Of a stretch of DNA of 64,000 bases, positions 5,090-46,703 are shown piece after piece (the first letter of the stretch is position 1; each line of letters starts with the position of its first letter). The stretch is taken from NCBI GenBank assembly GCA_964420555.1, contig CAYQTT010000014.1:23686-87685 (forward strand). Direction: 5' to 3'. Below the pieces are notes generated by a model. That model was not told the DNA's origin, made no database searches, and was given only the letters and a program-made list of their open reading frames with translations. A program made the translations under genes and the position numbers. This DNA comes from an uncultured Lentimicrobiaceae bacterium. GTDB lineage: Bacteria > Bacteroidota > Bacteroidia > Bacteroidales > UBA4417.

Positions 5090-5296
5090 ATGCATATCGA
5101 TCTACTAGATCATTAATAAAGAAAACCAAGATTAGTAATCATTCCAAAGACAGTTTAAAGTTCAAATCTCTTTCAGTAGCAGGCATTTTTTTTTCTCTTT
5201 CTACTAATTTCATTAGTAATAGGATATTAATTTTGATAATTCTAAAAATCGTATATTTGTACTTCGATTAAATTAATCAATTAAAAAATTGCAACT

Positions 5297-9393: not shown

Positions 9394-9456
9394 TTGGGTT
9401 TAATAAGACTGCTGTTTCACAAAATAAAAATACAATCAAATTAATTAAGTTTAAAA

Positions 9457-10005: not shown

Positions 10006-10008
10006 AAT

Positions 10009-10884: not shown

Positions 10885-10958
10885 GATATGGAATGCCGCT
10901 ATCAGCAATGATTTGTGCCTACCTGGAATTTAAGTTTAACAATTAATTTTAACAAAAG

Positions 10959-28613: not shown

Positions 28614-28815
28614 TTGAGCTTTTAAAATGCGATACAAACATGCTTGTAAATATTTATAAACTATTTGCCATACCTGCTTTTATTTCATTAATATTGTAGT
28701 GTTCAAGCGATTAGAGTATTGTTAATTTGTAGATGTTTGAACTATCATAAGCTCTTTGGATTTAGGCTTTTTACTCGTCTTATACCTGCATAGGCAAATC
28801 AATAAATCTGGTACA

Positions 28816-29454: not shown

Positions 29455-29470
29455 CTAAAATTTAATTGCT

Positions 29471-29620
29471 ATGGCAGATCGAGATCACAAACCAGCAGTG
29501 CCTCTGCATGAAGGTGTTGAAAAAGCGGAATCTAAACCTGTAAGAGATACGCGGCCACCACCACCGCCACCACCACCTGTTAAACAAGATAACATACCGC
29601 CATCTCCTAAAAAAGATTAA
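29471..29620 (+). CDS. 49-aa polyproline peptide (not in ORF track)
   Basis: MADRDHKPAVPLHEGVEKAESKPVRDTRPPPPPPPPVKQDNIPPSPKKD*, 16 bp after the DUF6338 stop; the Pro run uses mixed codons (CCA/CCG/CCT). Confidence 0.6.
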   Translation: MADRDHKPAVPLHEGVEKAESKPVRDTRPPPPPPPPVKQDNIPPSPKKD

Positions 29621-29665
29621 TCTTTTGACGAAATTGGTAGTTTTCATGTTTAAAACCTACACTGC

Positions 29666-29696
29666 CCGGCTCAGGCAAATCTTTTGCTTGAGCCGG
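29666..29696 (+). terminator. Stem-loop after the polyproline ORF
   Basis: CCGGCTCAGGCAAA-TCT-TTTGCTTGAGCCGG; no U-tract, so function is uncertain. Confidence 0.5.
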
Positions 29697-29783
29697 ATTA
29701 TTATCAGTATCCCTGGATGCAAAATCTGTTATCCCGAGACTTTTCTAAGACAAATAATATAAATTTTAAAAACTCATAACGAC

Positions 29784-30149
29784 ATGCAAAACGATTCAGT
29801 TTATGCTTATCTTCAGGGTTCCAATTATGAAATATTCATGCACAGAGCCTTCAGAACATCCAATCGTTCCAAGCCTGGCATGGATGGATCAACAATGAAA
29901 AATCTAATTGATGCTGAAAATGGCGAATCATGGGTTAGACACCTTGGCTCATTTGAGAAACAACTAACTCAAATAAAGTTCTATATGAATAAAGCATTAG
30001 ATAAATATTTGGACATGAAACTGCCGGTTGAAAATCTTGTAGCTGTAAGCTTAATGAAATTGAGATTAGATCAAGCTAATTCTTCAGCTGTAATAATCAA
30101 TATAATTGATGAAACAATTGAATTAACGCAGATAGTAAAAAATTATTGA
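29784..30149 (+). CDS. Hypothetical helical protein
   Basis: 121-aa ORF with ATG start in an AT-rich context; no motif recognised. Confidence 0.55.
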   Translation: MQNDSVYAYLQGSNYEIFMHRAFRTSNRSKPGMDGSTMKNLIDAENGESWVRHLGSFEKQLTQIKFYMNKALDKYLDMKLPVENLVAVSLMKLRLDQANSSAVIINIIDETIELTQIVKNY

Positions 30150-30214
30150 TGCTACTTAAATAGGTCTTTCCCTTGTGCCGGAAATCCTGTTTGGGAATTT
30201 TACTTTGAGCGAAA

Positions 30215-31426
30215 ATGATATTTATGAATACAGTTAAAATTGGAGATACGTTTGAGAAAAAATCACATGATGTGATTGTAAAGGCTATAGAGAATGGTGA
30301 ATTGGGTATCTCTGAATCAGCATCAAGAGTATTTCAGAAAAAGGGTTATTATTCTCGTGACAGAGAGAAAGCTATAATATTTGATTTGTCAATTGAAGTA
30401 TGGCCTACAAATGCAGAAAGGTATACATTGCTGTATTTAATTGAATGTAAAAGTTCAAACTCAAAGAAAGTACCTGTTGATGATATAGAAGAGTTTTATT
30501 CCAAAATTATCCAAGTTTCCGGGGTCAATGTTAAAGGAGTCTTGATTTCTGACAATTCATTTCAGGAAGGAGTTGTGACTTTTGCAAAAAACAGAGGCAT
30601 CATGCTAATTGAAGTTAGCAAAATAGGAGAACATAATATTATCCTACACAGAACCAATCGGGGTATTGATGATATAAAAGACAAGGATATTGATTCAATT
30701 TTTGAAAAATTTATAAAAAGGGCTTTTGGGCCCCAAAAAATAGAAGGATTACAAAAACTATCATCAGATCAAATTGAAAATAAGGCAAATATTTTACATA
30801 GCGAATATTCAAGAAGCCGAAAACCAATTGTAATAGATGAGTTTATTGAATTTGTAACTCAAAAATATGGACTCAAGATTGATTTAATATGTGATCTGGA
30901 GACAATAAACGGGAAAAAGATTTTGGGATATTACTCAGTTAAGGAAAATACAATCTTTCTGGACCAATCACTTTTACTTACGAATCAAACAGCATTTGTA
31001 CTAGGTCATGAATTAGGCCATTTCTTTTTACATAAAGAATTGACTGTAAATCAGGAATTGTATAATGATTTTGAAGATTCAGAATATGATTTCTTTGCAG
31101 ACAAGCATATACTTAAAAACGACAAAAACTGGATCGAGTGGCAAGCAAATCGATTTGCGATCTCTTTGTTTTTACCTTCAGATTTGTTCCTTTATCATTT
31201 ATGTGACTACAGACAAAGTATCGGAATTAGTAGATACTTTCATATTTACTTGGATAACCAAAGGATTAATCAAGATGATTACAGGAAAACCGTTGATCAT
31301 CTGGCATACCTTTTTGGAATAAGTAAAACAGTCGTCAAGTATAGGATTGACGAATTAAAGATAATTACGCATGCAGAATCCAAGAATGATATTGGAAGTC
31401 ATATCAGAAGATTTCTGTTAGAATAG
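30215..31426 (+). CDS. Restriction-endonuclease-like domain fused to ImmA/IrrE metallopeptidase
   Basis: N-terminal FDLSIE...LIECKS and VPVDDIEEF (Mrr-like); C-terminal HELGH (HExxH) and EWQANRFA. Confidence 0.8.
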   Translation: MIFMNTVKIGDTFEKKSHDVIVKAIENGELGISESASRVFQKKGYYSRDREKAIIFDLSIEVWPTNAERYTLLYLIECKSSNSKKVPVDDIEEFYSKIIQVSGVNVKGVLISDNSFQEGVVTFAKNRGIMLIEVSKIGEHNIILHRTNRGIDDIKDKDIDSIFEKFIKRAFGPQKIEGLQKLSSDQIENKANILHSEYSRSRKPIVIDEFIEFVTQKYGLKIDLICDLETINGKKILGYYSVKENTIFLDQSLLLTNQTAFVLGHELGHFFLHKELTVNQELYNDFEDSEYDFFADKHILKNDKNWIEWQANRFAISLFLPSDLFLYHLCDYRQSIGISRYFHIYLDNQRINQDDYRKTVDHLAYLFGISKTVVKYRIDELKIITHAESKNDIGSHIRRFLLE

Positions 31427-31483
31427 ATAGAATAATTCGATTTAATAATTTTAGGGATTCTTCTTTGATTCTTACAATACTAA

Positions 31484-31921
31484 TTACAATAATTGAATTA
31501 CCTGACTTTCTATATTAACCTCTCTGAATTCATCTTTCCACTCAAATTTGAGTTCAATTTTGTCCGGAAAATTATCAACAAGTGCAATTGTAATTTCAAT
31601 GGACTGTTGCGGCCTGAGATCAATAGGACAAGGATTATTCATTACTTCATACAATTCATTTTCAGGGATAGTAACATTTACTGACCTGGCAATAGATTTG
31701 CCTGTGTTACAAATAATTATTCCATTAAGACCATCTCTTTTTTTTAAAACTTTCGCTTCCAGAATTGCACGAAGCGATTCAATTTTCTCTTTCTCAACTT
31801 TTTCAATCTGATATGCATTGATAAGCTTTTGCTGTTTTTTAATCTTCCTATCATGATTAAAATAGGTAAAGGCGGATAAAGATAATGCCAGAATTGAAAT
31901 CACTATTCCTGCTATTTCCAT
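31484..31921 (-). CDS. Hypothetical protein with N-terminal TM helix, coiled coil and beta domain
   Basis: IAGIVISILALSLSAFTYF TM segment, then a K/E-rich helix and a beta-rich C-terminus. Confidence 0.65.
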   Translation of the reverse strand: MEIAGIVISILALSLSAFTYFNHDRKIKKQQKLINAYQIEKVEKEKIESLRAILEAKVLKKRDGLNGIIICNTGKSIARSVNVTIPENELYEVMNNPCPIDLRPQQSIEITIALVDNFPDKIELKFEWKDEFREVNIESQVIQLL

Positions 31922-31971
31922 TTTAACGAGGTTATTAAATGACTATTTTTAATTTATAAGTATTTTAAATT

Positions 31972-32907
31972 TTAGTCTATTTGTGTTTGCAGATCTTTAG
32001 GCAAAACAGGAAAAGATAAATCGAAATTTTCCAGATCTGAAAGAAAAATAGTGAGTAAACGCTTTGCGTCAGCCAAATCTGTCCTTTCTGGACGATTTAA
32101 ATGATTTTGGAGATCACTGTATTTATTTTTGACCTGGATAGATAACTGAGGGATCTGTAATTTCTTTGATTTTATATACAGAAATTTTAAAATTAATAAT
32201 CCTAAACATGTGATATTGAAATTTTTAAAGTGAATAGTTGAGTCGTAGACTAATGTAGATGCAATACCAATGCATTGATTGCCAATTTCAATCAGTTGTT
32301 CATTGTTTTTCTGATCATTACTACCAGGGAAGAATTTTGTTGTTAACGAAAAAATGGTTTGTGCCATTTTTGTAGGTAGTCCACTACGTGTTTCATAAGA
32401 AACTAATGAGAGAAAAGAAAATACTTCAAATGCAATTCGTGAATTATTGAATTCGGAGAATTTATTTAATTTTTGAATAATGTAATTTCGATCCATTAGA
32501 ATACACTCATAGTATTCTTGCTTAATTCTGGTTATCTCCATTAAAACAAGAGCTGATGTGGCAGCTAAAATTAAATCTTCTGAAGTGAGATTTGCTATGG
32601 GATTATAAAGCTTTTTTAGTGAATTATTTCTATCATTTTGAATAACTGCGTAATGATGTTCTCGAAATTTGATAATTGCTTTTGGAGTAAGCTTTTTGCG
32701 AAGACTTCCTGTTACTGTTGCTTCGTTATGACAATCAAAACATAATAGGGCTAGATTTTCAAATTCATTATTTGAATTATTTCCGTCAATATGATGCATA
32801 TGGTCGCCACGCTTTTGGTCAACGCAGCAGAGCCTATTTGATTGAAAAAGCACTTCAGCTTCAATGTCTGCAGGAATTTTTATTCTTTTCGTTTTTTGAA
32901 TACTCAT
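31972..32907 (-). CDS. HNH endonuclease domain protein with helical C-terminal region
   Basis: CCVD...HMHHIDGNNSNNEFENLALLCFDCHNE; probable start at ATG 32907. Confidence 0.8.
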   Translation of the reverse strand: MSIQKTKRIKIPADIEAEVLFQSNRLCCVDQKRGDHMHHIDGNNSNNEFENLALLCFDCHNEATVTGSLRKKLTPKAIIKFREHHYAVIQNDRNNSLKKLYNPIANLTSEDLILAATSALVLMEITRIKQEYYECILMDRNYIIQKLNKFSEFNNSRIAFEVFSFLSLVSYETRSGLPTKMAQTIFSLTTKFFPGSNDQKNNEQLIEIGNQCIGIASTLVYDSTIHFKNFNITCLGLLILKFLYIKSKKLQIPQLSIQVKNKYSDLQNHLNRPERTDLADAKRLLTIFLSDLENFDLSFPVLPKDLQTQID

Positions 32908-33068
32908 ATAATTTTGGTTATTATTTTGCATTAGCTTAATTAATTCTGTTTGACTGACATATATTATTTATAATTATAGCTAGTTTTATAATCGAATTTG
33001 CAAACTACATTTCTAAACAATTTACTAAGGATTATCAATTCATAAGTATAACAGGTTTTGATTAATCA

Positions 33069-36000
33069 TTAATCCATCCATCCCTTAAAATCTCTTTTCA
33101 TTTCATCTTGCATTTCCTTTTTTGACCATTCAATTTTTCGTTCCCAAATTTTTATGTGTTCGGCATAGTCAAGAGGATTAGGTAATGTACTTATCATTTC
33201 GATGATGGATTTCAAAAAGTTAATTTCTTCTTCAATTTTTGGGACCCGGCTACCATGTGAAATCCCGCTTTCTTCTAACCAAAGGTGATCAATAAATTCT
33301 ACATCCTTATTCAGTAGTAGAAACTCTTTTAGAAAACGTAAAATTTGATTTTTGAACCTATATGTAACTACATTTAAAATAATATGGATATGTTGCTCTG
33401 ATGAATAATTTTTGCGAATGAATTGACTGATGTAATCAAATACTTTTTCCAAATCAGTTCCACCGAATTTTAACCCTTTAAATAAAACATTTGCTTGATG
33501 CTCCCAACTGGAATAAATTGGAGCTTTTTTAATTATTATTTCTAATGCTTTATCTAGTATGACTACATATTCCGGTAAGTGCCAAACAAACGAAAGATTT
33601 AACTTGTCGAATTTAAATTCGAGAAAACTTATTTCTTTTGTAGTTTCAAGTAAATATTCGATTAAAAAATTATGATCTACTGAAGATATTGCCTCCATTT
33701 CATTCCCATTATGATCATAGTAGCCATCCCTTTTTCGTTGTAAATAATAAACCTGTTTGAGCAAACCAATATTGTCAACAAAGTGGTAAATGCACTTTTT
33801 GCAAATTTCATGGTCAAATGAAATATCTGAATTCTCAATTTTCGATAAGAGAATCTCAGTAATATAGGTTAAAATATTTTTATGACTTTCTGCTGAAGGT
33901 GGCAAAGAAGACTTTAAGTTATTAAACTGCTTGTCAAATTTCAAGATAGTTTCAGGATTATACATATAAAATCTTCCACTAACTGAAAAAATGAAACCAA
34001 TATACTCTTGTAAAAAGAATTCATCGATGTAATCCGGATCTATAGCATCAAAAAATGTTTGCTTCCAAAATTGCTTTTGTTTATATTCAAATCTATTAAG
34101 ATGTAGGTATAGCTCCTTTAGATTAACTAATTTTTGGCGGATCGGATAAAAGATAATACTTCCGTAATTTAAATCAAATGAATATTTGCCTAGCATCATC
34201 AGTTCAAGCGATCTAAAGTAAAATTTAGACTCGGTTTCAGCAATTATATGAAACAAGTAGTTCAAACTAGTTTCTATCCAATATGAATCATGTGTTTTAG
34301 CAGCCGCTTTATAAATTAGATCTAATTGGCCAAAAGTTCCCTCAATAAAGCTAAAATCTTTGCCAGAAATGTAATTTTCAATTTCGGATTTTCGTTTCTG
34401 CTCCTGTTCATCATATGTAAGTTTTTCATCATCAAATTCTGAACTGAAAATTTTTGCAATGAGCATGGAATCAGATTTCAAAAACAGAGTCCAATCATTC
34501 AATAGTTGAATGTTATGCTCTTTCAATGTTTCGACGTAGGCAAATACTAATTTACAATGGGAGAAATTTTCAGGATCAAGATATTTAAGTATAAAACCAG
34601 TAATCAATATTTGTTCTTCTTCATAAACACTTGAATCTATGCTCCCTGAAGTCCAGGCATATTTATGAATGGCTTCAAGAACTTTATCTTCGTTTTCATT
34701 GAACAGAGTTATCAGTCTCGATAAAATCTTTTTCCTTAATTCCATTAAAGAATGAGTTTTAATCAAAACAAAATTGTAAATTATCATCTGGCCATTGCCT
34801 TTACTTTCTGTTTGATGAAAATCCCATGCAAGTAAAGAAGGTGCAATTGAAAGAAATAATTGGTCTGAAATTGTTTTTTCTCTATCAGTGAAATCATTGC
34901 TGTCAAGTATGTCAATCAGGATAGATTGACGTGGATAAGCAAATCTATAATCAAAGCGGTGAAAAGTTAAATTTTCTTTTAAATGTTTTAATGTTTCAGG
35001 TATTCTTGAGGGCTGACGAAACATCAATTTAAGTCCTAACCCGATTGCATCTTTTGTGTAAGGAGTATTATGATTCCAAAAATTTAAAAGTAATTTGAAA
35101 TATTCTGGAGCCCAGACAAAGTCGTTTACCTCATATGTATACTTAATGTCTAGAAGTTCGGTATTCTCTTTAATCAAGTTGTTTATCCAATTTTTAACAA
35201 ATAATAGTGTATCTACTTCCTTATAAAACCAGAATATTTCAAAAAATTTGTATAGGCCGTTTGTATTTACGTTTAATTTATTTTGAACTTCAGCAATCAA
35301 ACTTGTTATTCGATCTTTTAACTCTTCGTACCCAAAAGTATTTATCAAATCAATGAGTGTTTTATTGATTTTTGTATCATATTTTTCAATAAATGATACA
35401 AGCCAATCAGAATAATTGATAGATGCAGAATTTTCATCGATAAAAGTCTTATAAAATGCATAAGTTGCCAGAACCTGGTCCGACATTTTTGCAGCCTCTT
35501 TATAAAACACATCAACTAATTCAGCTTTCTCTAACTCGATAAAAGTTTCCCAAAGGTCATTCCAATTTACCTTAAAATGGATCTTCAACATCTCGTTAAC
35601 TTCTTCATTACTTCTGTCTAATACACCAAAAAATGAAAGCAATCCAAGGGCTCTGAGGTTGTCTGGCTTTTCTAAGAAGGAAATATCTGTTTTTACTTTC
35701 TGAAAATATTGGTCATATAGTAAAAAGACATTTTTGAGAATACTTATATCATCGTTTTGAAGAATGGAAGAAGTTGCCATCAAAGCGATACGACTATTCC
35801 CTTTAGATAAGGAAACAATTCTTTCCATAACTAATTGATCCAAAGATATGTTATCAGGTAATGATTTATTTATTATTTCAATTAGTTGTTTATCTTCGAA
35901 GGGCTTTATAATAATTTCATTATAAATAGCATTGAATAAGAATTTATCAAGATCTTTTCGGACGTAATCTCTAACCGTAATTATTATTTTGGTTGAGTTT

Positions 36001-36863
36001 TTATCTCTGCTATTAACAAACTGCAATAAATAATCTAAATTCGGTAAAGACTTGTTTGCGTCATCAAAAAAAATGATGTACTTATTGGTAGGCATAATAA
36101 AGGTTGTCAAATCTTCCCATAATGGAACCGGGCTACTCGCAATAACTCTAGGCTCATAATTATATTCGCTTTCAAAAATATGAGCCAAATGAACTGCAAG
36201 TTTTGATTTGCCTACACCTTGATTCCCAGTAATAATTAGGATGTCGTTTAACTGTAGAAAATCTCTAGCTTGATTAATTTCATCTTCACGTCCAGCAAAA
36301 GGATTGGTTAATGAAGGCTGAAGACCTTTTTCAGTTGTTTTAAGAAAATCAGGTAATGTATACAGTGTCCCTTTTGTTGTTTTTACACCTGGGATATATT
36401 TGTCTGCTAATCCAGGATAATAAACCAATCGAAAAGGTATTTCCTGTATTGAATAAATGACTAATTCAGTTTGAGGATTAAATTGCTTGATTTTTTCCTT
36501 TAACTCATTATGTTCAGAAGGATTAATTTTTTCAGTGAAAGCTAAAATTATTTTTGATATTTTAGAATTGTCAATTCTTGTGCTCTTTATATCAAAGCAA
36601 TGCTCAACATCATTTTTAAGTTTTTTAAAGAATGTTTCACCTTTGCTAAGTCTTTCTTGAGTTGTACATTCACAGAATATGTAATTATCTCCATCCTCAA
36701 AAAAACTATCGGGACGTCCTTTGCTTGTTTTGTTTTTTCCAATTACTGAACCAGGTGAACCGATAAAGCGATAGCCTTCCAGGTGCAGAAGGTGATTCAT
36801 CAATTTTTGAAATGTTGCTTGATCAATACTGGATAAGTGCTCTTCAATTATTGTAGTAATCAT
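33069..36863 (-). CDS. NLR-like STAND ATPase with N-terminal PD-(D/E)xK-type nuclease (Avs-like)
   Basis: GRPDSFF...IFCECTT nuclease-like motif; Walker A GNQGVGKS; Walker B IIFFDD; IIITVR sensor; GNSRIA; ~800-aa helical C-terminus. Confidence 0.75.
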   Translation of the reverse strand: MITTIIEEHLSSIDQATFQKLMNHLLHLEGYRFIGSPGSVIGKNKTSKGRPDSFFEDGDNYIFCECTTQERLSKGETFFKKLKNDVEHCFDIKSTRIDNSKISKIILAFTEKINPSEHNELKEKIKQFNPQTELVIYSIQEIPFRLVYYPGLADKYIPGVKTTKGTLYTLPDFLKTTEKGLQPSLTNPFAGREDEINQARDFLQLNDILIITGNQGVGKSKLAVHLAHIFESEYNYEPRVIASSPVPLWEDLTTFIMPTNKYIIFFDDANKSLPNLDYLLQFVNSRDKNSTKIIITVRDYVRKDLDKFLFNAIYNEIIIKPFEDKQLIEIINKSLPDNISLDQLVMERIVSLSKGNSRIALMATSSILQNDDISILKNVFLLYDQYFQKVKTDISFLEKPDNLRALGLLSFFGVLDRSNEEVNEMLKIHFKVNWNDLWETFIELEKAELVDVFYKEAAKMSDQVLATYAFYKTFIDENSASINYSDWLVSFIEKYDTKINKTLIDLINTFGYEELKDRITSLIAEVQNKLNVNTNGLYKFFEIFWFYKEVDTLLFVKNWINNLIKENTELLDIKYTYEVNDFVWAPEYFKLLLNFWNHNTPYTKDAIGLGLKLMFRQPSRIPETLKHLKENLTFHRFDYRFAYPRQSILIDILDSNDFTDREKTISDQLFLSIAPSLLAWDFHQTESKGNGQMIIYNFVLIKTHSLMELRKKILSRLITLFNENEDKVLEAIHKYAWTSGSIDSSVYEEEQILITGFILKYLDPENFSHCKLVFAYVETLKEHNIQLLNDWTLFLKSDSMLIAKIFSSEFDDEKLTYDEQEQKRKSEIENYISGKDFSFIEGTFGQLDLIYKAAAKTHDSYWIETSLNYLFHIIAETESKFYFRSLELMMLGKYSFDLNYGSIIFYPIRQKLVNLKELYLHLNRFEYKQKQFWKQTFFDAIDPDYIDEFFLQEYIGFIFSVSGRFYMYNPETILKFDKQFNNLKSSLPPSAESHKNILTYITEILLSKIENSDISFDHEICKKCIYHFVDNIGLLKQVYYLQRKRDGYYDHNGNEMEAISSVDHNFLIEYLLETTKEISFLEFKFDKLNLSFVWHLPEYVVILDKALEIIIKKAPIYSSWEHQANVLFKGLKFGGTDLEKVFDYISQFIRKNYSSEQHIHIILNVVTYRFKNQILRFLKEFLLLNKDVEFIDHLWLEESGISHGSRVPKIEEEINFLKSIIEMISTLPNPLDYAEHIKIWERKIEWSKKEMQDEMKRDFKGWMD

Positions 36864-36991
36864 CTAAACAGGATTTTGGAGAAAAGTGTTAGCATATTTT
36901 AACTTCAAATATATGTTGATTTTCTTCATTTTACTACTTGCTTTTAGATTAGTTTTAAACATCTTAATATAGCATTATTACAAAATACAGC

Positions 36992-37317
36992 TTATAAACT
37001 ATTTATAAATGTCTTTTTAACAACAGGGATTTTGAAAGTATATAGTTTCTTTAAATGTTTGATTAATTGCTCGTTTGTTAAAGATTTTTCAATATCGTCT
37101 AATACAAGAATTCAAGCTTCTTTATGCTCGTTAATGAAGTTGTAATTTAATTTGAATTTAATAAGTTCTTTTTACAGTTAAATGGGTCATTAATCTAATA
37201 TGGTGTTGAAAATTTCAATTTTTTTTTAAACAATACTTTAAGTCCATTTTTTGTTGAAAGATATTTATACACGATTGGATTCTCATGCCCGATCTGATTT
37301 ATATCAATAAAGTTCAT
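36992..37317 (-). pseudogene. Decayed DUF2971-like gene
   Basis: Manual translation MNFIDINQIGHENPIVYKYLSTKNGLKVLFKKKLKFSTPY*INDPFNC (TAG at 37195-37197), with further stops or shifts downstream. Confidence 0.55.
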
Positions 37318-37457
37318 CTTGCGACAATAAATTAAGAATTCCTGATGCTAAATGAAAGTGTAAAAATTATTCCAATACATTTTCGAAACTGAATTTAAAT
37401 TTTTAAATATAGACTTTAAAAATGACCTATAGAAACTGAAGTGCTCCATGCCTTTTA

Positions 37458-38246
37458 TCAAAGCTTTTCAAGAATCACAGCCCTGATCAATTTAAAAGCG
37501 GTATCCGGATTATACTCTGTATTAATCCTCAAGAGTCCCAGGATATCTTTACGGAATTCCAGATCGTTCATTTTGTTTTCCATATTGCTGATAAAGTCAT
37601 CACGCCGGATGGTTCGCCCTTCACTTTTCATGTATTCCTGATACGTTTTTATTATTAAGGCTATATCGGGATTGAGATTTGTGAGAGCATACCAAAGATC
37701 GAAGAGATCGCGGCCTTTGCGACGTTGATATAGTGCCCGGAGTTTTGTAGCCAGCAGTTCTTCAATTTTGTAAGTGCGGATATTGGCCTGCCCTGTAAAC
37801 CACGAATTGCTGATGTTCACTGGCATTTGATGATAACCCAGTACTGAAAAATGTTCACGGCAATTGATTTCAATTTTCAATTTCATTTTACGAACCGGTT
37901 CTGTTTCTGTGAGGTAGCGGTAATTCATTGTGGTCATGGAATCGCCCCTATCCACAGTGATTTTGCCATCAATGAAAGATAAAACTTTACGGAAGCGGGA
38001 AAGAACATCTCCAATCGGGGCCGGTGTTACCTGCACCAGGTCAATATCTTCGGAATACCTCACTTGTGGATGAAGCCATAATTTATGCAAAGCTGTTCCT
38101 CCGCGGAATGCAAGCTGTTCGGCCAGGAACTCGTCCTGATAGATAGCAATCAAAGCACGTTCGATAATAAGATCCTGTTCGACCTGTGCATCATCCGGCC
38201 ATTGGGCATTTTCCTTCCATTCGGTAATATAATTGCGTGGTATCAT
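37458..38246 (-). CDS. abiEii: AbiEii nucleotidyltransferase toxin
   Basis: QVEQDLII, AFRGGTALHK, RYSEDIDL, KLRALYQRRKGRDLFDL. Confidence 0.92.
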   Translation of the reverse strand: MIPRNYITEWKENAQWPDDAQVEQDLIIERALIAIYQDEFLAEQLAFRGGTALHKLWLHPQVRYSEDIDLVQVTPAPIGDVLSRFRKVLSFIDGKITVDRGDSMTTMNYRYLTETEPVRKMKLKIEINCREHFSVLGYHQMPVNISNSWFTGQANIRTYKIEELLATKLRALYQRRKGRDLFDLWYALTNLNPDIALIIKTYQEYMKSEGRTIRRDDFISNMENKMNDLEFRKDILGLLRINTEYNPDTAFKLIRAVILEKL

Positions 38247-39052
38247 ATGTCGCTTTCAACCTCCATATTTTTAATCAGTTTCCAGCGTTGGGAAACTTCC
38301 CCTTTTCGCTCTTTGCTTGTGGATAACGGAACCGGATGAATTTTTCGATCTGCTAACGCTTTTTCGACAGCGGCAGCCAGTTTTTCATTACCTAATTCAA
38401 TGTCCAGCAGATATCCTAGGCGCTGTATTGCAGCAGTAACCGGAAAACGTTTTGCAGTTTGTAACAAAACCGAAGGCTTCATTTCTTCAGCAAGCTCGCT
38501 AATAACGGCAGTTGCCCGATTGATAACCATCCAATTATTAAATAAAAGCAAATCAAGAGCGGTTAATTCCGGGGAAGAAACGTTAATATAACCGGCTTCG
38601 GTTTTTTTCTGGATGATATCGCTAACATCCCAGGAGTTTTTTACAAGGAAATTTATAGCAATCTTTCCAGTACTAATCTTACGCAATGCAGGTGGCCTGG
38701 TAATAATAAATGATTCCATAGGTTGCTGATGCGAAGATCCATGAAGAGCAGCCGCAGAAAGCAACCCTATATAATAAGGCTTTCCAAGCCATTTCATCAT
38801 CTGATCGATGAAGAAATACAAAGGGAGAATTCCCGAAGAAGCATACTCAGGCGGGATAACCACAAAGAAACCTTGCCGAACCTGTGCAATCTGGCCTTTT
38901 GATTTTAATCGGAAAAGGCTTTGGTTGATAGCATTTTCAGATATTGAGAATTTTGATCGCAGTTCATCCAGTGTGAAGGCATAGCGGCCTTTCCCTCTTA
39001 TTTTAAAGAGGTATTCCTGAATATTGGAAGCTGAAGCATGATCTATTTCCAT
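38243..39052 (-). CDS. abiEi: AbiEi antitoxin (type IV TA)
   Basis: wHTH start, YYIGLLSAAALHGSSHQ, VSSPELTALDL; 4-bp overlap with abiEii; probable start at 39052. Confidence 0.9.
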   Translation of the reverse strand: MEIDHASASNIQEYLFKIRGKGRYAFTLDELRSKFSISENAINQSLFRLKSKGQIAQVRQGFFVVIPPEYASSGILPLYFFIDQMMKWLGKPYYIGLLSAAALHGSSHQQPMESFIITRPPALRKISTGKIAINFLVKNSWDVSDIIQKKTEAGYINVSSPELTALDLLLFNNWMVINRATAVISELAEEMKPSVLLQTAKRFPVTAAIQRLGYLLDIELGNEKLAAAVEKALADRKIHPVPLSTSKERKGEVSQRWKLIKNMEVESDI

Positions 39053-39165
39053 ATTTGTGCGTAATTGCGTAATACTACGTTTTTCGTAATAATACGCAAA
39101 TGTAAACATTTTATTGTTGCGTTACTTAAAAGGATAAAATTAATGTACAAACCAGAGGTGATAAA

Positions 39166-39404
39166 CCAAATTATAAAACAGGGTAGGCAGGGTAGACACT
39201 TTTGGGCAAAAGGTTTTCGAAATTTCATAAAAAAGCTTCTGAATCAATAGAAAGATGGGCAAAAGCGAAGGAAAAATAATGAATTTTCTGCGCACTAATT
39301 TTTTCTTCTGTTTCGCTTGATGCAGTCTGGTTATAGAAAGAATTTTAAAAATAGTTATTTTTTTTAGTGAGAATTTGCCTACCCTGCCTACCCTGTACCT
39401 TACT
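39166..39404. repeat. Origin-like element copy 1 with 20-bp terminal inverted repeats
   Basis: CAGGGTAGGCAGGGTAGACA (39179-39198) and TGCCTACCCTGCCTACCCTG (39376-39395) around an AT-rich core. Confidence 0.85.
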
Positions 39405-40060
39405 CCAGCCCTTTTGGAAGGAGTTACCCACTATATATTTTTAATAATTACTTAATTTTCTTGAATTATAAGTAAAATATTCAGACATCGATCTGAATGA
39501 GAGAATGGCTCTCAATCTTGATTAAGAAATGTTGACCGGAAATGCATTTTGACATATGGATTTAGACTGTGTCAAAATGACAGATAATGACAGATTATTT
39601 TAGAAAACCTAACGTAGTGAATAATTAAGGCATACTTCCTCATATTTAAAAAGATAGTTTATTGAATAGCATATTAAAATGTTGTATACAATATTACTCA
39701 AATCAAACATAATTTGAGCAAAGTACAATCAACTGTGTTTACATATACATATATATCATGTGTCAGATTGTCACGTATTGATTAAAATATACAGATGTGT
39801 TTAAGTAATTGAATTCTGGCATAAGAGTTGAATTAAGTTCACTGAGGCAAAACTATTCTGTCGTGAAGCGAATGGTAAAGTGTTAATAAAAAAGGAATTG
39901 CGTATGACGTAGATTTACAAAAAAACAATGTACAAACTCTCAGCAGAAATAAATGCAAATGCAGTGAGAAATGTAAAAGAAAAACCAAACATTAGAAATC
40001 AGGTTGGAAATATCAATTGATGTAGAAAATAAACTAAAAACAAACTAAAAATATTAAAAA

Positions 40061-40396
40061 ATGAATAATCCAAAATTTCAAGTTTTCAAAAGTAATGCAA
40101 ATGCTCAGTATTATTACAAATTACGAGCAACTAATGGTGAAGTAATTTTAAGTGGTGAAGGTTATACCACCAAGCAAAACTGCCTAAATGGAATTACATC
40201 AGTAAAAGCCCATGCTCCTTATGACCAGTACTATGACAGGAAAGATGGTTATAATAATTACACCTTTAATCTTAAAGCTAGAAATAGTGAAATTATTGGT
40301 AGAAGTGAGAACTATACAACACGGGTGAATCGTGAAAATGGAATTGCTGCCGTAAAAAAGGATGCTCCTATTGCTCCAATTGAAGATTTAACTTAA
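40061..40396 (+). CDS. yegP: YegP/DUF1508 tandem-domain protein
   Basis: Two repeats of F.L.A.NxEII..SE.Y. Confidence 0.88.
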   Translation: MNNPKFQVFKSNANAQYYYKLRATNGEVILSGEGYTTKQNCLNGITSVKAHAPYDQYYDRKDGYNNYTFNLKARNSEIIGRSENYTTRVNRENGIAAVKKDAPIAPIEDLT

Positions 40397-40455
40397 TCTG
40401 TTAAACTACAAGGATTAAGTAAAGCAGTCATTTCTTTTTATAAAAGAGTAATACA

Positions 40456-40694
40456 CCAAATTATAAGCAGGGTAGGCAGGGTAGGCACTTTGGGGCAAAA
40501 GATTTTCGAATTTTACAAAAAAGCTTCTGAATCGCTAGAGGGACGGACAAAAGCGAAGAAAAAAATAAGATTTTTTTTTGTAGACTATTATTAACATCTG
40601 TATCGCCTGAAGCTGTAGGATTGTAGAAGGAATTTTCAAAAAAGTTATTTTTTTAGTGAGAATTTGCCTACCCTGCCTACCCTCTACCTCACTT
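40456..40694. repeat. Origin-like element copy 2, immediately downstream of the virE-like gene
   Basis: AGGGTAGGCAGGGTAGGCA (40469-40487) and its perfect inverse at 40665-40683; alignable with copy 1 over its whole length. Confidence 0.85.
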
Positions 40695-40709: not shown

Positions 40710-42959
40710 TTAAGAAAGTGAGTCGTTGAATGGCAAATCTACCTGTATTTCAATAGGTTGGGCTGGTGAATTAGCTTCAGTTTTAGAGGCATTTCCCGAA
40801 AATTCTTCAATCATAGAGCGATTCCTAGATTCGACCTCTTCCCACTGAAGTTCATGGAGAGCATAAAGCAATTTGCCATTAGATTTAAACCGATGATAGT
40901 TGTTTTTGATAAGAGCTTTTCCAAGTTTGTTAACTGAACTATCGGAAACATTAATTTTAGCTTTATCAGCCAGTTTTGCCAGAATTTGTGATGCTGTCAG
41001 GAATACGTTTGCTTGCTCTTTTGTGCAAGACTCAAACCAGGTCAACAATAATTCTTCTTCAGGGGACCGAAGCTGGTACTGCTCATTGTTCTGGTTAATG
41101 GCTCCAATTTCATCCCGGTTGAACCAAAAGCGGAAACCGGACTTAAAAAGATGTAAAGCCTGGGAGTAAACATCGTTAAGAGATACTTTGTGGTCGTATT
41201 GAATATCAGTAACTTCGAAGGAAAGGAATCGACGGGAACCGGTTGTGTCGTTGAGAAATTGGGCAGTGTTTACACTACCGGCGAAGCTGGCACAACGTGG
41301 AAGTGTTTCGTTGTTATGTCCGTATGCCCGACGGATCCGGATATGAGTTTTAGTGATCAGCTCTTTTAAGCTGCCAATCTCACTTCGGTTCAGGTTTTCA
41401 AGCTCATCGAGATTTATTAACATGCATTCGGAAAGATGGATCAAGGTATCCTTGTTGTTGGGATTAATGGTTCCTGAGAAAAGGTACTGCTTTAATTCTA
41501 TTGGAATAAGATTTTCCATCCAGGTTGTTTTACCAACACCTTGCTTGCCGGAAAAGACGATTACTGTTTGGTTGATGGTGTGTTCGTCAAGGACACAACC
41601 AACCATTGCAACTAACCATTTTTTGAAGCAGGTGTGCCAGAGTTCCTGATGGGTGGTTGTGATGGTATCGGCAAGAAGGGCAATGTGATCGGTTTGTTCA
41701 TCCCAGAAAGGAAGGCTTTCAAAGTATGTTGTGAAGGGATTAAAGAGTTCGCAAAAGTCAGAATACAATAAATTCCGTAATCCGGACATATTGGTTTTGA
41801 CTTTGTTTTTAAGCAGTTCACGAAGCATTGAGTTTTCGATATAGTCGTTCACCTGGTGCCAGACTTTTTTAGTTATGAAACGATATTCAAGACGGCCAGT
41901 TATGGTATTGTTGCGGAAACGGTATTTGAGGAGAAGGAAGTTTTCTACTCGGTCGATGGCGGGGATACGTTTTTTAGGTGCTTCGTCTTCGGTATTTTCC
42001 TCTGTGGCAGCTGGAATAACCTCACCTCCCGGCCTCCTCTCCTGGAGGAGAGGAGATGACTCTGCTTCACTTTTTATGCCATGTTCAGATCTATTTTTAT
42101 AGGCACTATTTACAGCCGCCATAACTTCTTTCTCATCGAAGTTATAATCGGCCAGGATAAAGCCAAGAGCTGCAGCGAACTGCACTCCACTTCTATTCAG
42201 ATTGCAAGCCAGCTGATGAACAAAGTTATTGCGGCTGCCTGTGGTGAAAGATTCATTGTGTTCAGTGAGTTTGATGGAGTCGTGGTATATTTTCAGGTAA
42301 TCTTGCTGTGGAATTACTGTAGGCTTGACTTCACCATCTGGCTCTATTTTCCCGTCAAGCGGGGACTGGTTCTGAGTGTTAGGGCGTGAATCTTCGTTTG
42401 AACTCTTACTTGAAAGAGTATTTGTGAAAACTTGTGCATTAGGATTATGGTAAAGATCCGGATCAACGGACATGAAACAGAGCCGGGTGTAATCCTTACC
42501 AGATTTGTCGATAGGCAAACCGGTGAGTGATTCGTAGTAAGACTGAACAAGCAAAAAAGTATTCTTGTGCGTTGATGGTGTAGCCTGTGTTTGAACAAAA
42601 ACCTTGAGGCCGTTTCCTGAAGGGCTGATGAAAACTGCCATGGTAAATTGATCGTCCATGACCGATTCACGGCATTTTTTCAATTGTTCCGGACTGAGTT
42701 TGTCGAAGTCCAGTACAATGATGCCGGAATACTTTTTAAGAGTTTCCTGGTTGCGGCCACCTTCGAATTGACCGGAAGGTGTGAAAGCCAGTAATCCCTT
42801 CTTGGCTTTCTCGTACGATTCAAGCTTTTGCTCCTGCAGACACTTCCGGATATAAGTGACTGGTCCGCGGTACTTGCCGCTTTTGATATCAGTGAGTATA
42901 TCGACGAAGGGCTTATTCTCGGTTATGTTGGTAAAGTTTTGGAATATGGAGAGGTTCAT
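40710..42959 (-). CDS. VirE-family primase-helicase (BT4734-like N-terminus, SF3-like P-loop domain)
   Basis: FTPSGQF, SGIIVLDFD, FISPSGNGLK (primase-polymerase-like); GKQGVGKTT, INLDEL, DTTGSRRF. Confidence 0.88.
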   Translation of the reverse strand: MNLSIFQNFTNITENKPFVDILTDIKSGKYRGPVTYIRKCLQEQKLESYEKAKKGLLAFTPSGQFEGGRNQETLKKYSGIIVLDFDKLSPEQLKKCRESVMDDQFTMAVFISPSGNGLKVFVQTQATPSTHKNTFLLVQSYYESLTGLPIDKSGKDYTRLCFMSVDPDLYHNPNAQVFTNTLSSKSSNEDSRPNTQNQSPLDGKIEPDGEVKPTVIPQQDYLKIYHDSIKLTEHNESFTTGSRNNFVHQLACNLNRSGVQFAAALGFILADYNFDEKEVMAAVNSAYKNRSEHGIKSEAESSPLLQERRPGGEVIPAATEENTEDEAPKKRIPAIDRVENFLLLKYRFRNNTITGRLEYRFITKKVWHQVNDYIENSMLRELLKNKVKTNMSGLRNLLYSDFCELFNPFTTYFESLPFWDEQTDHIALLADTITTTHQELWHTCFKKWLVAMVGCVLDEHTINQTVIVFSGKQGVGKTTWMENLIPIELKQYLFSGTINPNNKDTLIHLSECMLINLDELENLNRSEIGSLKELITKTHIRIRRAYGHNNETLPRCASFAGSVNTAQFLNDTTGSRRFLSFEVTDIQYDHKVSLNDVYSQALHLFKSGFRFWFNRDEIGAINQNNEQYQLRSPEEELLLTWFESCTKEQANVFLTASQILAKLADKAKINVSDSSVNKLGKALIKNNYHRFKSNGKLLYALHELQWEEVESRNRSMIEEFSGNASKTEANSPAQPIEIQVDLPFNDSLS

Positions 42960-43117: not shown

Positions 43118-43447
43118 TCATCTGGCAGCAGGCTTCTTCGAAATCCTGCTATTCAGACGAATTGTACTTTTACTTGCAAAGGCATTGTTATAATGCTTTT
43201 TGAGAAACATTTCAATATCAGCCTGGGTGTAATAAATCTTGGCTCCTACCTGAGAAAATGAGATTTTACCTTCATCGCGCCAACGTTGTGCAGTGCGGGA
43301 GGCGATTTTCATTGTAGAGATGAAATCATCATTGTCGATAATCAGGTCCCTGATGCTTTTGGATGATGGTTGCAGGCGAAGATTGATTTCTTCAATTTTG
43401 TCCATGAGTTTCTGGTACTGTTCTGGTGTCATGAAAATTGCTTCCAT
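43118..43447 (-). CDS. Excisionase-like helix-turn-helix protein
   Basis: IDNDDF...IASRTAQRWRDEGKISFSQVGAKIYY; probable start at 43447. Confidence 0.85.
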   Translation of the reverse strand: MEAIFMTPEQYQKLMDKIEEINLRLQPSSKSIRDLIIDNDDFISTMKIASRTAQRWRDEGKISFSQVGAKIYYTQADIEMFLKKHYNNAFASKSTIRLNSRISKKPAAR

Positions 43448-43794: not shown

Positions 43795-44706
43795 TTACTC
43801 TTTAATATTATTAATTTTATATCGTTTGTGAGATTTTGGCCTTTTATCAGGACGATTAGGATCGAGAATGGTCATGACTGTAGGGCGAGAAATTGGATTT
43901 CCCTCTTTATCGAGGATGTGTTGGCATAGAATATCAGCCAGGTCAGATACTGTTATGGATAGTAATGGGCTCGTACCGACTTTTAGTTCGTTGGTCAGCT
44001 GATATATCATATCCAGAAACGCATTGGTATTAAAGTTAATCTTTCCTTTTGGATTGATTGTAGAAGATTGCTTTTTAGCTGATTTTTTTTCTTTTACCTT
44101 TTGGAGCAGCCCTTCTTCATCAACCAAATTGTTGATTTCAAGTTTACATTGCTTATCGAATTTTTGTTTAAAAGTAGCTACCCATTCAGGAGGATGTTGA
44201 CGATAATTCTTGATCTGAGTCTTTAGATAAAGTATTTTCTCTTCAGCTGTCTCCATCAACTTAATATTATCCATGACATCTTCAAAACAGTAAACCCTAT
44301 CTCCACTATATCCATTTAATGAACTTTTCAGTTTCTGTTCCCTGGCATATTGCATGGCTGTAACCTTGAGCTCGTGGCGCTTTGAAATAATTTCAGAACC
44401 CCATTTAATTTGCCGAAATTTCTGGCCATCATCGTTGAACCAAATCTGATTTAATCTTAAAAGCTTTTCCAGAGAATTTAACCAGGATATTGGACTTTTA
44501 AGGATTTCGCAATGATGGTCTAGAAAATCTACAATTTCAGAAAGACCAATTGTTAAGACCTTTCTGAAAATTGCCAGGCAATATGCATTCGAAGAAATTT
44601 CACCTTCGAGGATAATATCCAAAACTGTAGTGTTAGCCTGATTGGGCTTCACAAAGTTGTACTCCGGAAAGTGAACCGTATTGATGTTGTCGGGATGTAA
44701 GTCCAT
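43795..44706 (-). CDS. Element-core hypothetical protein, possibly an RteC-like regulator
   Basis: 303-aa ORF between integrase and xis; C-terminal helical region (DLADILCQHI...ISRPTVMTILDP) could be an HTH. Confidence 0.5.
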   Translation of the reverse strand: MDLHPDNINTVHFPEYNFVKPNQANTTVLDIILEGEISSNAYCLAIFRKVLTIGLSEIVDFLDHHCEILKSPISWLNSLEKLLRLNQIWFNDDGQKFRQIKWGSEIISKRHELKVTAMQYAREQKLKSSLNGYSGDRVYCFEDVMDNIKLMETAEEKILYLKTQIKNYRQHPPEWVATFKQKFDKQCKLEINNLVDEEGLLQKVKEKKSAKKQSSTINPKGKINFNTNAFLDMIYQLTNELKVGTSPLLSITVSDLADILCQHILDKEGNPISRPTVMTILDPNRPDKRPKSHKRYKINNIKE

Positions 44707-44990: not shown

Positions 44991-46259
44991 TTAAGTGACA
45001 AGAGTTGTATTAGGGATTTCTTCCGAAGCTTGGGTTTTGTCATCCGTTTTCTTAATATTGAATACCTGCATCGCTTTATTGAGCTCTTCATTTATGATCT
45101 TGGCATAAATCTGAGTTTCAGAAATATCGGCATGGCCGAGAATTTTTGAAACCTTGTCGATGCTGATTCCCTTAGTAAGTGCCCTGGTTGCCCAAGTATG
45201 GCGGCTTATATGGAAACTTACTTTTTTAGTAATTCCGGCATCTGATGCAAGCAACTTCAGATTCTTATTAATATAGGCCGTGGCTGACGAAATCTCATTA
45301 TCCATCACAATGATATCATCACGTTTAAGATCATTACTCAACATCGGAAAGATATAATCTGTTGGCGTTGTTTGATTCGTCTTGTATTTACTAATTATCT
45401 CAATTGCCTTATCCGGAAGTAGGAATGAAAGCTGGGCTTTTGTTTTCTGGACTGAAACATGGATGTTTTCCCCATCAAAATTAGCCCAGGTTAATTTTAA
45501 CACATCAGATACCCTGAGGCCACCAGCATAAGAAGCAAAAACAAACATATCCTTGTGCAATTCAAGACGGGTACCAGGCTTAGTTTTGACTTTTTCGAAT
45601 GCTGCCAATTCATCTTCGCTGAGGTACTCCCGATGAGTTTTCTCGGTCTTTAATTTGTACTTATTGAAAGGTATTTCTTTGTGTTCAATCAAATCCATAC
45701 GATAAGCATCATTGAAAAGCTTTCGGATAAACTTCATATCCTTATTGATTGTATTGACTTTATTTTTGAGTTCCACCTGGCAGTCAATTTCATATCTTGT
45801 CAGGAATTCAACATCAATATCCTGGAAGTTCAAGGGCTTTTCTTCTACGAAGTCTTTAATCTTTTTGATTATGGATTTATTCTTGTCATAGGTACCTACC
45901 TGTCCAGCCCGGAGGTATGCTTCGCATGCTTCATCAGCAAACTTGAAAAAGTTTGTTGGTTCAGGTCCATAAATCAAGTTTTTCAGATCTTTAACCGTTA
46001 GCGACTTTATTTTGGTTTCGCCATCTAGAACTCCTGCTTCCAAATCATCCTTCTGCTTATAGATATATTTATTCAGGCGCTGCCAGTTGGGACATCCTTT
46101 CTTAATTAAAGCCTTTTTTGGATCCCAGAACTTGGGATCTACTTTAACATGTGTCGGGATCTTTTTATATTTCCTATCTTTGATGATGCAAAGATTGATT
46201 GGAGCTTCACCTTTTTTATTGATGCGATCCGTTCTTAGAATTACTGTAACCGTTGCCAT
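44991..46259 (-). CDS. Tyrosine recombinase/integrase (Bacteroidota arm-binding type)
   Basis: Catalytic R (GLRVSD), K (VQKT), HxxR (HISRH), H (LGH) and Y (TQIYAK); N-terminal arm-binding domain; probable start at 46259. Confidence 0.95.
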   Translation of the reverse strand: MATVTVILRTDRINKKGEAPINLCIIKDRKYKKIPTHVKVDPKFWDPKKALIKKGCPNWQRLNKYIYKQKDDLEAGVLDGETKIKSLTVKDLKNLIYGPEPTNFFKFADEACEAYLRAGQVGTYDKNKSIIKKIKDFVEEKPLNFQDIDVEFLTRYEIDCQVELKNKVNTINKDMKFIRKLFNDAYRMDLIEHKEIPFNKYKLKTEKTHREYLSEDELAAFEKVKTKPGTRLELHKDMFVFASYAGGLRVSDVLKLTWANFDGENIHVSVQKTKAQLSFLLPDKAIEIISKYKTNQTTPTDYIFPMLSNDLKRDDIIVMDNEISSATAYINKNLKLLASDAGITKKVSFHISRHTWATRALTKGISIDKVSKILGHADISETQIYAKIINEELNKAMQVFNIKKTDDKTQASEEIPNTTLVT

Positions 46260-46308: not shown

Positions 46309-46602
46309 GGGAAACATAGTGGGAAACATTTTTGTAAAACTCTGAATTTTTGTGGCTTCAGTTGGCTTAGCCAAAATTCTATGTATTTGATATACAATTA
46401 CATAAAAGACTATAACGGTAAAAGACAGACATAATTGTGATCCTATCGGGGTCACCGGTTCATCAGTTAACCACTTATCAGTTAAATACTTATAAGTGGT
46501 TTTTCTTTTTTACATTCAAATTTACATCTACTTATATAGTATTTTAACGGTATATAACTGCTTTTATTGATTGAACAATGAAAACATGCCAATTGTTTCC
46601 CA
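46309..46602. other. att region: arm-type repeats, symmetric core and hairpin
   Basis: GGGAAACAT at 46309 and 46321; core GTGATC-CTATCGG-GGTCAC at 46437-46455; hairpin AACCACTTAT/ATAAGTGGTT at 46469-46501; inverted TGTTTCCCA at 46594-46602. Confidence 0.6.
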
Positions 46603-46703
46603 AATAATAGTATAATACATTGTATTCCAATACAGGCTGGCAGAAATTGAAGGAATAGTCTTAACAAATAAAAGGAAAGTCATCAGCATAAAAGAATGCG
46701 ACA

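Follow-up and report, generated by a model that had tools for sequence, protein, structure and literature searches.

What is the role of a palindromic, iteron-flanked element that lies just past the stop codon of a virE gene, encoding a fused primase-helicase, and recurs about 1 kb further on? The question is raised by a 64,000-nt stretch of contig CAYQTT010000014.1 from an uncultured Lentimicrobiaceae bacterium (the window, to which all coordinates refer unless another locus is named). The two elements are probably copies of a replication origin read by the neighbouring VirE protein. The locus would then be a replicon of the primase-initiator-origin (PriRep-ori) type of the staphylococcal pathogenicity islands (SaPIs), carried by an int-xis-VirE defence island of Bacteroidota. 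An origin for the VirE primase-helicase, with convergent iterons around an AT-rich centre, had been proposed in the initial annotation of this DNA. It is favoured here because the layout strictly follows virE, the iterons co-vary with the winged helix of VirE, the helicase is homologous to SaPI1 Rep1, and the iterons are conserved above the level of the spacer between them.

The duplicated element beside virE

The features on which the argument rests are the following.

39158-39404, strand not assigned: putative origin copy 1, distal, with no virE adjoining; recognised by its iterons and by repeat alignment; its left flank is the abiEi upstream region
40448-40694, strand not assigned: putative origin copy 2, virE-proximal; recognised by its iterons, in a layout that recurs in about 20 VirE loci
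40710-42959, minus strand: virE, encoding a fused primase-helicase of 749 aa (Pfam; DNA helicase/primase in PHROGs)
40824-41003, minus strand: winged-helix domain of VirE (residues ~653-712), the proposed iteron reader, with recognition helix SSVNKLGKALIKN and wing RFKSNGKLLYAL (AlphaFold2 [AF2] model, Foldseek and co-variation)

Each copy carries two direct 9-mers on the left and two inverted 9-mers on the right, located where they had been annotated. In copy 2 both arms are perfect, with GGGTAGGCA twice on the left (40470-40487) and the inverted 9-mer TGCCTACCC twice on the right (40665-40682). The left arm of copy 1 (39181-39198) reads GGGTAGGCA followed by GGGTAGACA, with a single mismatch, in the second 9-mer, and its right arm (39376-39393) contains TGCCTACCC twice. 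The arm-to-arm distance is 177 nt in both copies, with the spacer at 39199-39375 (29% GC) in copy 1 and at 40488-40664 (31% GC) in copy 2. At up to three mismatches, the 18-mer occurred four times in the window, against 0.00 expected from 100 shuffles. The right arm of copy 2 ends at 40683, which leaves a gap of 26 bp to the virE stop codon (40710-40712), as described initially. The duplication itself is real, but the repeated unit is about 247 bp and not about 215 bp, since similarity between the copies reaches beyond the arms, by about 22 nt to the left (..CCAAATTATAA) and some 11 nt to the right.

The two copies are 82% identical overall and 78% identical in the spacer. The arms agree at 35 of 36 positions. 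Arms evolving at the rate of the spacer would be as conserved as this with P = 0.0015. The core was correctly called AT-rich, but only moderately so (29-31% GC, compared with 40% in the genome and 43% in virE). Conserved blocks in the spacer include CACTTTTnGnnAAAAGA beside the distal arm and a central dyad, GAAGGAAAAA...TTTTTTCTTC, indicating that the whole element is an imperfect palindrome. Its terminal inverted repeats are 18-21 nt long, and as single-stranded DNA the two copies fold better than shuffled sequences (z = -4.6 and -4.7). An Rfam scan of the 38-44 kb region at E ≤ 1 gave a chance HrrF match outside the element and nothing else, indicating no known RNA.

The source genome (5.6 Mb, 96% complete) contains four copies of the element, a count on which BLAST, a pattern search and an nhmmer profile all agree. 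Besides copies 1 and 2, these are a copy at locus C9, located 40 bp past the stop codon of a second virE paralogue (65-67% amino acid identity), and a copy at locus C16, which is followed by a 170-nt remnant of the virE 3' end. Copy 1 has neither virE nor a virE remnant adjoining it. In the bacterial family, the element was found in 5 of 45 genomes, where the copies adjoin virE (the proximal copy of genome G016, and those of G007 and G020), adjoin a 115-nt virE remnant (the distal copy of G016) or are truncated (G044). No target-site duplications were present in the flanks of the element copies examined.

Layout downstream of VirE homologues

The related loci comprised 35 from genomes and 32 from metagenomes; the close loci from genomes belong to metagenome-assembled genomes of Lentimicrobiaceae and other Bacteroidales. 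The close VirE homologues (66-89% amino acid identity) are those of G016/L029, L030, L032-L035, L064-L069, L072 and L079, together with the C9 paralogue of the source genome. A search downstream of virE homologues, which the initial annotation had suggested, found the same layout in every close homologue with downstream DNA (about 20 loci), namely two iterons, a spacer of 177-187 nt and two inverted iterons. The element starts 20-110 bp past the virE stop codon in these loci. In a more distant clade (41-60% identity) the layout is kept, the spacer being 119-127 nt long. In Chitinophagaceae, Saprospiraceae, Emticicia and others (L039-L063), VirE homologues at 33-39% identity have other tandem 8-9-mers directly past the stop codon, including TGCAAAGnn repeated three to five times, TGAGGAnn/TCCTCAAA sets in opposed orientation with about 115 nt between them, and arrays of ATTAGCAG. 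A gene-then-iterons rule thus seems to be general for the VirE protein family, judging from these sequences.

The 9-mer varies by locus (GGGTAGGCA, GGGCAGGCA, GTGTAGGCA, CGGTAAGCA, GGGTAAGTA, GGGTAAGCA and others), and both arms of an element always carry the same variant. The variants are distributed as follows.

GGGTAGGCA: the window, G016 and C9
GGGCA(A/G)G.. (L030 type GGGCAGGCA): L030, L064 and L069
GTGTAGGCA: L033, L066, L031 and L065
CGGTAAG(G/C)A: L032
GGGTAAGTA: L034
GGGTAAGCA / GGGTAAGGT: L035, L068 and L079

Winged-helix domain of VirE and iteron specificity

VirE contains a BT4734-like archaeo-eukaryotic primase (AEP) domain at residues 52-170 (Pfam E-value 8e-35 for BT4734-like_N), a PriCT_1 domain at 239-289 in the same open reading frame (ORF), a VapE/VirE P-loop helicase at 418-629 (1.9e-39 for VapE-like_dom) and a DUF3874/winged-helix region at ~632-712. 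A phmmer search of the PDB gave one match for VirE, 7pds_A, with an E-value of 1.4e-10 over residues 404-599. Entry 7PDS is the complex of SaPI1 Rep1 with DNA (PMC9371898).

The last 176 residues of VirE were modelled with AF2 from a 43-sequence alignment, with a predicted local distance difference test score above 90 over fragment residues 60-130. The model has the topology helix-helix-strand-strand (fragment residues H83-94, H100-112, E116-120 and E123-130), preceded by a helix and a short hairpin. In VirE numbering, the helices span 656-667 and 673-685 and the beta-hairpin wing spans 689-703. The top Foldseek matches in the PDB were all winged-helix DNA binders (Fur, MecI/BlaI, HlyU, SSV1 F-93 and PadR), with probabilities of 0.9-0.98. 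On the basis of this model, the C-terminus of VirE is proposed to be a winged helix and a candidate reader of the iterons.

Beyond a variable linker of low confidence, the C-terminal tail of VirE (40713-40760) ends in a conserved Q-x-D-L-P-F motif (IEIQVDLPFNDSLS) that is present in nearly all homologues of the clade. Peptides that bind the beta clamp include QL[SD]LF and, in Hda, QLSLPL. The VirE tail resembles these and might recruit the host sliding clamp.

The four proteins of the int-p303-HTH_17-virE module were aligned across loci and compared with the iterons locus by locus. The integrases of the window and L030 are 93.5% identical, with identical N-terminal arm-binding domains, and their iterons differ. 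The helix-turn-helix region of the HTH_17 protein is likewise identical in L032 and the window, and again the iterons differ. At the C9 locus, RteC and a 42%-identical HTH_17 protein occur with no int or p303 nearby, and the iteron is that of the window. The C9 VirE is 67% identical to the window VirE overall and nearly identical in the winged helix (VSDSSVNKLGKALIKNNY.R.KSNGKL.YAL). In L030, VirE is 83% identical overall, but the winged helix differs (it reads ITDGTVNKIGKALTKHKFLKLKNHGIRSYAL), and so does the iteron. The motif RKHGF.R.KK...Y.Y.V and a GGTAAG iteron core are common to L032, L034 and L035, and L033 has both the wing (RSNGKLTYA) and the TAGGCA iteron half in common with the window.

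Mantel tests over 20 non-redundant loci (10,000 permutations) gave a correlation of iteron distance with winged-helix distance of 0.60, compared with 0.29 for the helicase core. With the helicase core held constant, the partial correlation of iterons with the winged helix was 0.58 (P = 1e-4), and the reverse partial correlation was -0.24 and not significant. Within the close clade alone, the partial correlation was 0.63 (P = 1e-4). These comparisons support the view that the VirE winged helix, and not Int or the HTH_17 protein, tracks the iterons.

The arms and spacers of individual copies were also compared with copy 2. Spacer identity to copy 2 is 57% for C9, 59% for L030 and 63% for L065. 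Despite this, the C9 arms are identical to those of copy 2 at 32 of 36 positions (P = 3.7e-5). For copy 1, C16 and the distal copy of G016, the arms match at 34-36 of 36 positions and the spacers at 78-82%. The retention of the C9 arms beside a spacer as diverged as that of L030 indicates that selection maintains the arms within a specificity group, whereas they are exchanged from one group to another.

A separate tandem repeat upstream of int, TGTTTCCCAC twice, changes with Int, as L034 has TTGTTGGACCC twice and L031 has TGTTTACCCC twice. By this pattern, the TGTTTCCCAC repeats are likely to be arm-type sites of the integrase, distinct from the origin iterons. An inverted TGTTTCCCAC copy (46593-46605) lies beyond a GTGATC-N7-GGTCAC core, and the presence of arms to either side of this core suggests that two related elements meet here. 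A resemblance to an integrase arm site at 39422 (13-mer) was not significant, with 34 matches at ≤3 mismatches against 23.8 expected.

Comparison with known replicons

The closest model for the VirE locus is the SaPI replicon. SaPI Reps are self-loading helicases as well as initiators, and their C-terminal winged helix recognises iterons (PMC9371898). In SaPIs, 6-12 iterons are located immediately downstream of the rep ORF, with an AT-rich region at the centre of the origin and at least two iterons in opposite directions on each side; in SaPI5, a primase is fused to Rep (PMC9371898). Like the SaPIs and other phage-inducible chromosomal islands, the island in the window is integrative, with int and a Xis-like gene, and its primase is fused to a superfamily 3 (SF3)-type helicase, as in PriRep5 of SaPI5. 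The helicase cores are homologous, and a C-terminal winged helix is modelled here. The likeness extends to the position of the putative origin directly past the initiator ORF, to the AT-rich centre flanked on each side by at least two opposed iterons, and to specificity groups in which iterons and the C-terminal domain change together. The systems differ in iteron length and number (9 bp and two per side here, 5-6 bp and 6-12 in total in SaPIs) and in the spacer, which here is longer, at about 177 nt, and an imperfect palindrome. They also differ in the primase, which here belongs to the BT4734-like AEP family with PriCT_1, and in the host phylum, Bacteroidota. The island carries defence cargo, with no recognisable packaging or capsid-remodelling genes and no known helper phage, and binding and replication are here predicted from sequence. 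The design itself is already known from the staphylococcal islands and is not new.

A likeness to the P4 origin had also been pointed out. The alpha protein of P4 combines a primase, a helicase and a C-terminal winged-helix origin binder in a single polypeptide, and both ori and crr are needed. Its primase domain is of the bacterial DnaG/TOPRIM type, and its iterons are octamers. The alpha, ori and crr system is reportedly known from the work of Flensburg and Calendar in 1987, Ziegelin et al. in 1993-95 and Yeo et al. in 2002. VirE likewise joins primase, helicase and winged helix in one protein, and the window has short iterons in both orientations and two iteron-bearing cis regions, one of them beside the initiator gene. 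Both are integrative elements with hotspots for defence genes. However, relatives lack the second cis copy, as does the orthologous island of G016, whereas P4 requires both ori and crr, and this makes the SaPI type the closer model. P4 differs further in its DnaG/TOPRIM primase, against AEP here, and in the other sequence of its octamers.

Another parallel is the archaeal plasmid pRN1. The origin of this plasmid, which encodes the ORF904 protein (a primase-polymerase with an SF3 helicase), lies within the 166 bp downstream of the gene (PMC4234260). To that extent, an origin directly past a fused primase/SF3-helicase initiator gene is common to both systems; pRN1 is a plasmid and not an island, and the likeness concerns the position of the origin. 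Kazlauskas et al. predict that the C-terminal winged helices of primase-helicases from mobile genetic elements read origins and list VirE as a putative helicase, and they describe no origin for the BT4734/VirE group (PMC5862659). No paper assigning an origin to VirE/BT4734-type primase-helicases was found in the literature searchable here.

Proposed mechanism and alternative explanations

In the proposed mechanism, Int and the HTH_17 protein would excise the island. VirE oligomers would then bind the two opposed iteron pairs flanking the spacer through their C-terminal winged helices. The VirE helicase would distort and melt the 177-nt AT-rich palindromic spacer and load itself, the AEP/PriCT domain would prime, and the host replisome or polymerase would take over elongation.

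Several points weigh against an origin read by VirE. Binding, melting, self-loading and replication after excision are all proposed from the homology to SaPI Rep. The island and its flanks have equal depth in the source metagenome (about 9-10x), which gives no indication that the island replicates actively or exists in excised form. The AT-richness of the spacer is like that of other intergenic DNA here. Among the island ORFs scanned, nothing recognisable as a packaging, capsid or transfer gene turned up, which leaves replication without an evident occasion. The Foldseek E-values for the winged helix are weak (0.01-0.1), and the origin-binding domain of P4 alpha was not among the top 50 matches. 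The loci compared are related, so the Mantel P value of 1e-4 overstates their independence, and the iteron registers were curated by hand. Since the winged helix adjoins the iterons on the DNA, co-inheritance as a block could give part of the co-variation. The contrast between conserved arms and diverged spacers argues against block inheritance alone but does not remove it.

One alternative is that VirE docks at the element without replicating from it, so that the element would serve in autoregulation or termination of virE or as an accessory site for excision. The co-variation pairs the winged helix with the iterons and does not reveal what the complex does, the element is located at the 3' end of virE, and there is no coverage excess over the island. 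In addition, Shoemaker, Wang and Salyers reportedly found in 2000 that PrmN1, a primase homologue of Bacteroides NBU1, is needed for excision. However, both the primase and the helicase module of VirE are complete, and VirE is homologous to an initiator that is proven to load itself and has an origin of the same geometry. Two opposed iteron pairs around a long AT-rich palindromic spacer form the layout of an origin and not of an operator or terminator, and the element is downstream of virE and not at its promoter. A docking role is therefore considered distinctly unlikely. It is very unlikely that the element is an att-like site for recombination or cassette insertion, with the 9-mers as arm-type sites and a DUF1508 cassette integrated between the copies. 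This would account for the order copy-cassette-copy in the window compared with the single copy in G016, for cassette borders that coincide with the ends of the repeated unit, and for the resemblance of opposed tandem repeats around a core of about 180 bp to attP. The reading of the 9-mers as integrase arm sites was rejected on the constancy of the Int arm domain across loci with different iterons and on the separate repeat, TGTTTCCCAC, that follows Int. Moreover, in about 20 loci the element is single and flanks no cassette, no clean crossover is apparent, 401 genomes of the order yielded no other instance of the cassette, and the C16 and distal G016 copies carry virE 3' remnants, as decayed virE-origin modules would.

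A mobilizable island might also use the element as its origin of transfer (oriT), with a relaxase provided in trans to nick it. Richness in inverted repeats is common in oriTs, the island is without obvious means of transfer, and in Bacteroides NBU1 the oriT follows a primase-like gene. The probability of this explanation is similarly slight, as the island ORFs scanned (not every small ORF among them) include no relaxase or mobilisation gene, the repeats co-vary with the winged helix of VirE and not with any relaxase, and the layout matches a proven type of origin. Least credible is a non-autonomous fold-back element, that is, a miniature inverted-repeat transposable element (MITE), or a phage-type packaging site, both of which the initial annotation had named. 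The terminal inverted repeats, the folding of the single strand and the two copies with no intact virE adjoining would agree with it. A genome scan for dispersed copies with target-site duplications, set beforehand as the observation that would overturn the origin, returned only the four copies in 5.6 Mb, none of them with such duplications. The MITE reading was rejected on this copy number, on the linkage of all copies except copy 1 to virE or its remnant, and on the lack of target-site duplications. In the 5 of 45 family genomes, too, the element is always by virE, by a virE remnant or truncated, and across loci it keeps a constant position with respect to the virE stop codon. A packaging site is disfavoured by the absence of packaging genes among the island ORFs scanned and of close relatives in IMG/VR.

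Origin of the second copy and the orphan copies

The duplication does not belong to the design, since relatives have one copy at this junction. In the orthologous island of G016 (85-91% nucleotide identity over int-virE and AbiE), abiEi and virE are separated by a single element, and the DUF1508 cassette is absent. The arrangement in the window, in which copy 1 and copy 2 are separated by 1,043 bp, is thus derived. About 20 other loci also have a single copy within the available DNA, indicating that the duplication is specific to the window. Copy 1 retains the abiEi-side flank, which it has in common with the proximal and distal copies of G016 and those of C16 and G044, and copy 2 retains the virE-side flank. 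The borders of the cassette are the ends of the repeated unit. A single clean crossover inside the element, with the copies as hybrids of a resident and an incoming sequence, received no clear support, the pattern of informative sites being mosaic. DNA homologous to the DUF1508 cassette was found neither in the source genome nor in the related loci nor in the 401 genomes of the order.

Most likely, copy 1 arose as a side effect when related islands recombined or accreted, a process that also introduced the DUF1508 cassette. It looks like a scar left by reshuffled cargo and not like a required part of the design. Among Logan contigs of the source metagenome, three segments are of equal depth (about 9-10x), and the contigs break at a shared repeat of 24-32 nt. 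Alternative joints, corresponding to a cassette-less or circular form, were absent from the source-metagenome contigs.

At locus C19 of genome G016 (L024+L025, ~12001+9398 to 12001+33966), 24 kb of cargo, including an ORF of 2139 aa, lies between two origin copies that share one orientation. The distal copy there carries the 115-nt virE remnant. The virE remnants at this copy and at C16 would fit a history in which related islands accreted in tandem, or recombined with one another, and the older int-virE module was then lost. The truncated copy of G044 (C118:4023-4589, L026) follows the 5' end of abiEi, ends at alignment column ~202 with the right arm missing, and continues into unrelated DNA. 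It looks as though it was cut short by an insertion or deletion.

The orphan copy at C16 (2056-2523, L012), with its virE remnant, is 2.2 kb from the contig end. Beside it are a Peptidase_S8 protein of 803 aa and an AAA ATPase of 341 aa (the two ORFs at 2904-5315 and 5350-6375 of L012). The two may form a defence pair on the margin of a decayed island. The C9 locus (168001-188000, L013) is a second VirE island with the same iteron specificity, with RteC and HTH_17 genes upstream and a Dcm-type methylase and proteins of 780 and 374 aa downstream.

The iterons of copy 1 are intact, so it is predicted that this copy is probably still a VirE binding site. Orphan copies with kept iterons would be either still selected as VirE sites or homogenised by gene conversion. 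The genome encodes two VirE proteins of the same iteron group, and two initiators of one specificity in a cell imply cross-talk at all four origin copies. It is conceivable, though unlikely, that the virE-less origins (copy 1, C16 and the distal copy of G016) are live landing sites, fired in trans by a VirE of the same iteron group, and joints for the exchange of cargo. If so, origin-plus-gene units such as the 1.29-kb segment of element and DUF1508 gene could persist or move as origin-only hitchhikers, or, alternatively, defence cargo beside an orphan origin could be amplified in place upon VirE expression.

Significance

Primase-helicases of the VirE/BT4734 type are among the commonest genes of Bacteroidota integrative islands. 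The present locus and its relatives provide a concrete, testable candidate origin, along with at least six iteron/winged-helix specificity pairs that form a natural set. This set is enough for the design of binding and replicon-swap experiments and could supply compatible, orthogonal minimal replicons for Bacteroidota genetics. By analogy with SaPIs and P4, VirE islands laden with defence genes are probably replicative after excision, which would bear on the spread of defence cargo in Bacteroidota.

The island and its gene neighbourhood

The integrative island spans ~25.3-46.5 kb of the window (about 21 kb) and consists of the int-p303-HTH_17-VirE module and anti-phage cargo. Housekeeping-type genes resume to the left of ~25.1 kb, and homology to related islands stops at ~46.53 kb. 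Both int and the Xis-like HTH_17 gene are present by Pfam assignment. The remaining features of the region are listed below.

37458-39109, minus strand: AbiEii/AbiEi toxin-antitoxin pair (Pfam), the first cargo past origin copy 1
39405-40447, plus strand: insert of 1,043 bp between the copies, consisting of ~650 bp of AT-rich non-coding DNA and the DUF1508 gene; absent from the orthologous island of G016
40061-40396, plus strand: DUF1508 (YegP-like) gene (Pfam), between both origin copies
43118-43447, minus strand: HTH_17 protein of 109 aa, excisionase/AlpA-like and Xis-like (Pfam, PHROGs), without iteron co-variation
43795-44706, minus strand: p303, a conserved 303-aa protein of the int-p303-HTH-virE module (ORF/domain scan and locus comparison)
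44991-46259, minus strand: tyrosine integrase with Arm-DNA-bind_5, SAM_5 and Phage_integrase domains (Pfam); likely start MATVTV at 46259
46309-46330, minus strand: tandem TGTTTCCCAC x2 just upstream of int, candidate integrase arm-type sites

No relaxase, Mob, capsid or packaging genes were present among the island ORFs scanned, a set that leaves out some small ORFs. In IMG/VR, VirE had no close relatives and only distant (≤35%) matches to the primase domain. The sequence TTGTGATC(C/T)TAT is common to ~25181 and 46435 and is a weak candidate only for the att site of the island. The non-coding part of the cassette (39405-40060, ~650 bp, 28% GC) is without an ORF of at least 50 aa and without an Rfam match. 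Positions 31428-37457 of the window are missing from the G016 island, indicating that the cargo is mosaic. The cargo at 25452-36863 is a dense run of defence-type genes, which encode an MmeI-like type IIL restriction-modification enzyme, a membrane protein, a 403-aa protein, an HNH protein and a 1264-aa nSTAND3 NTPase.

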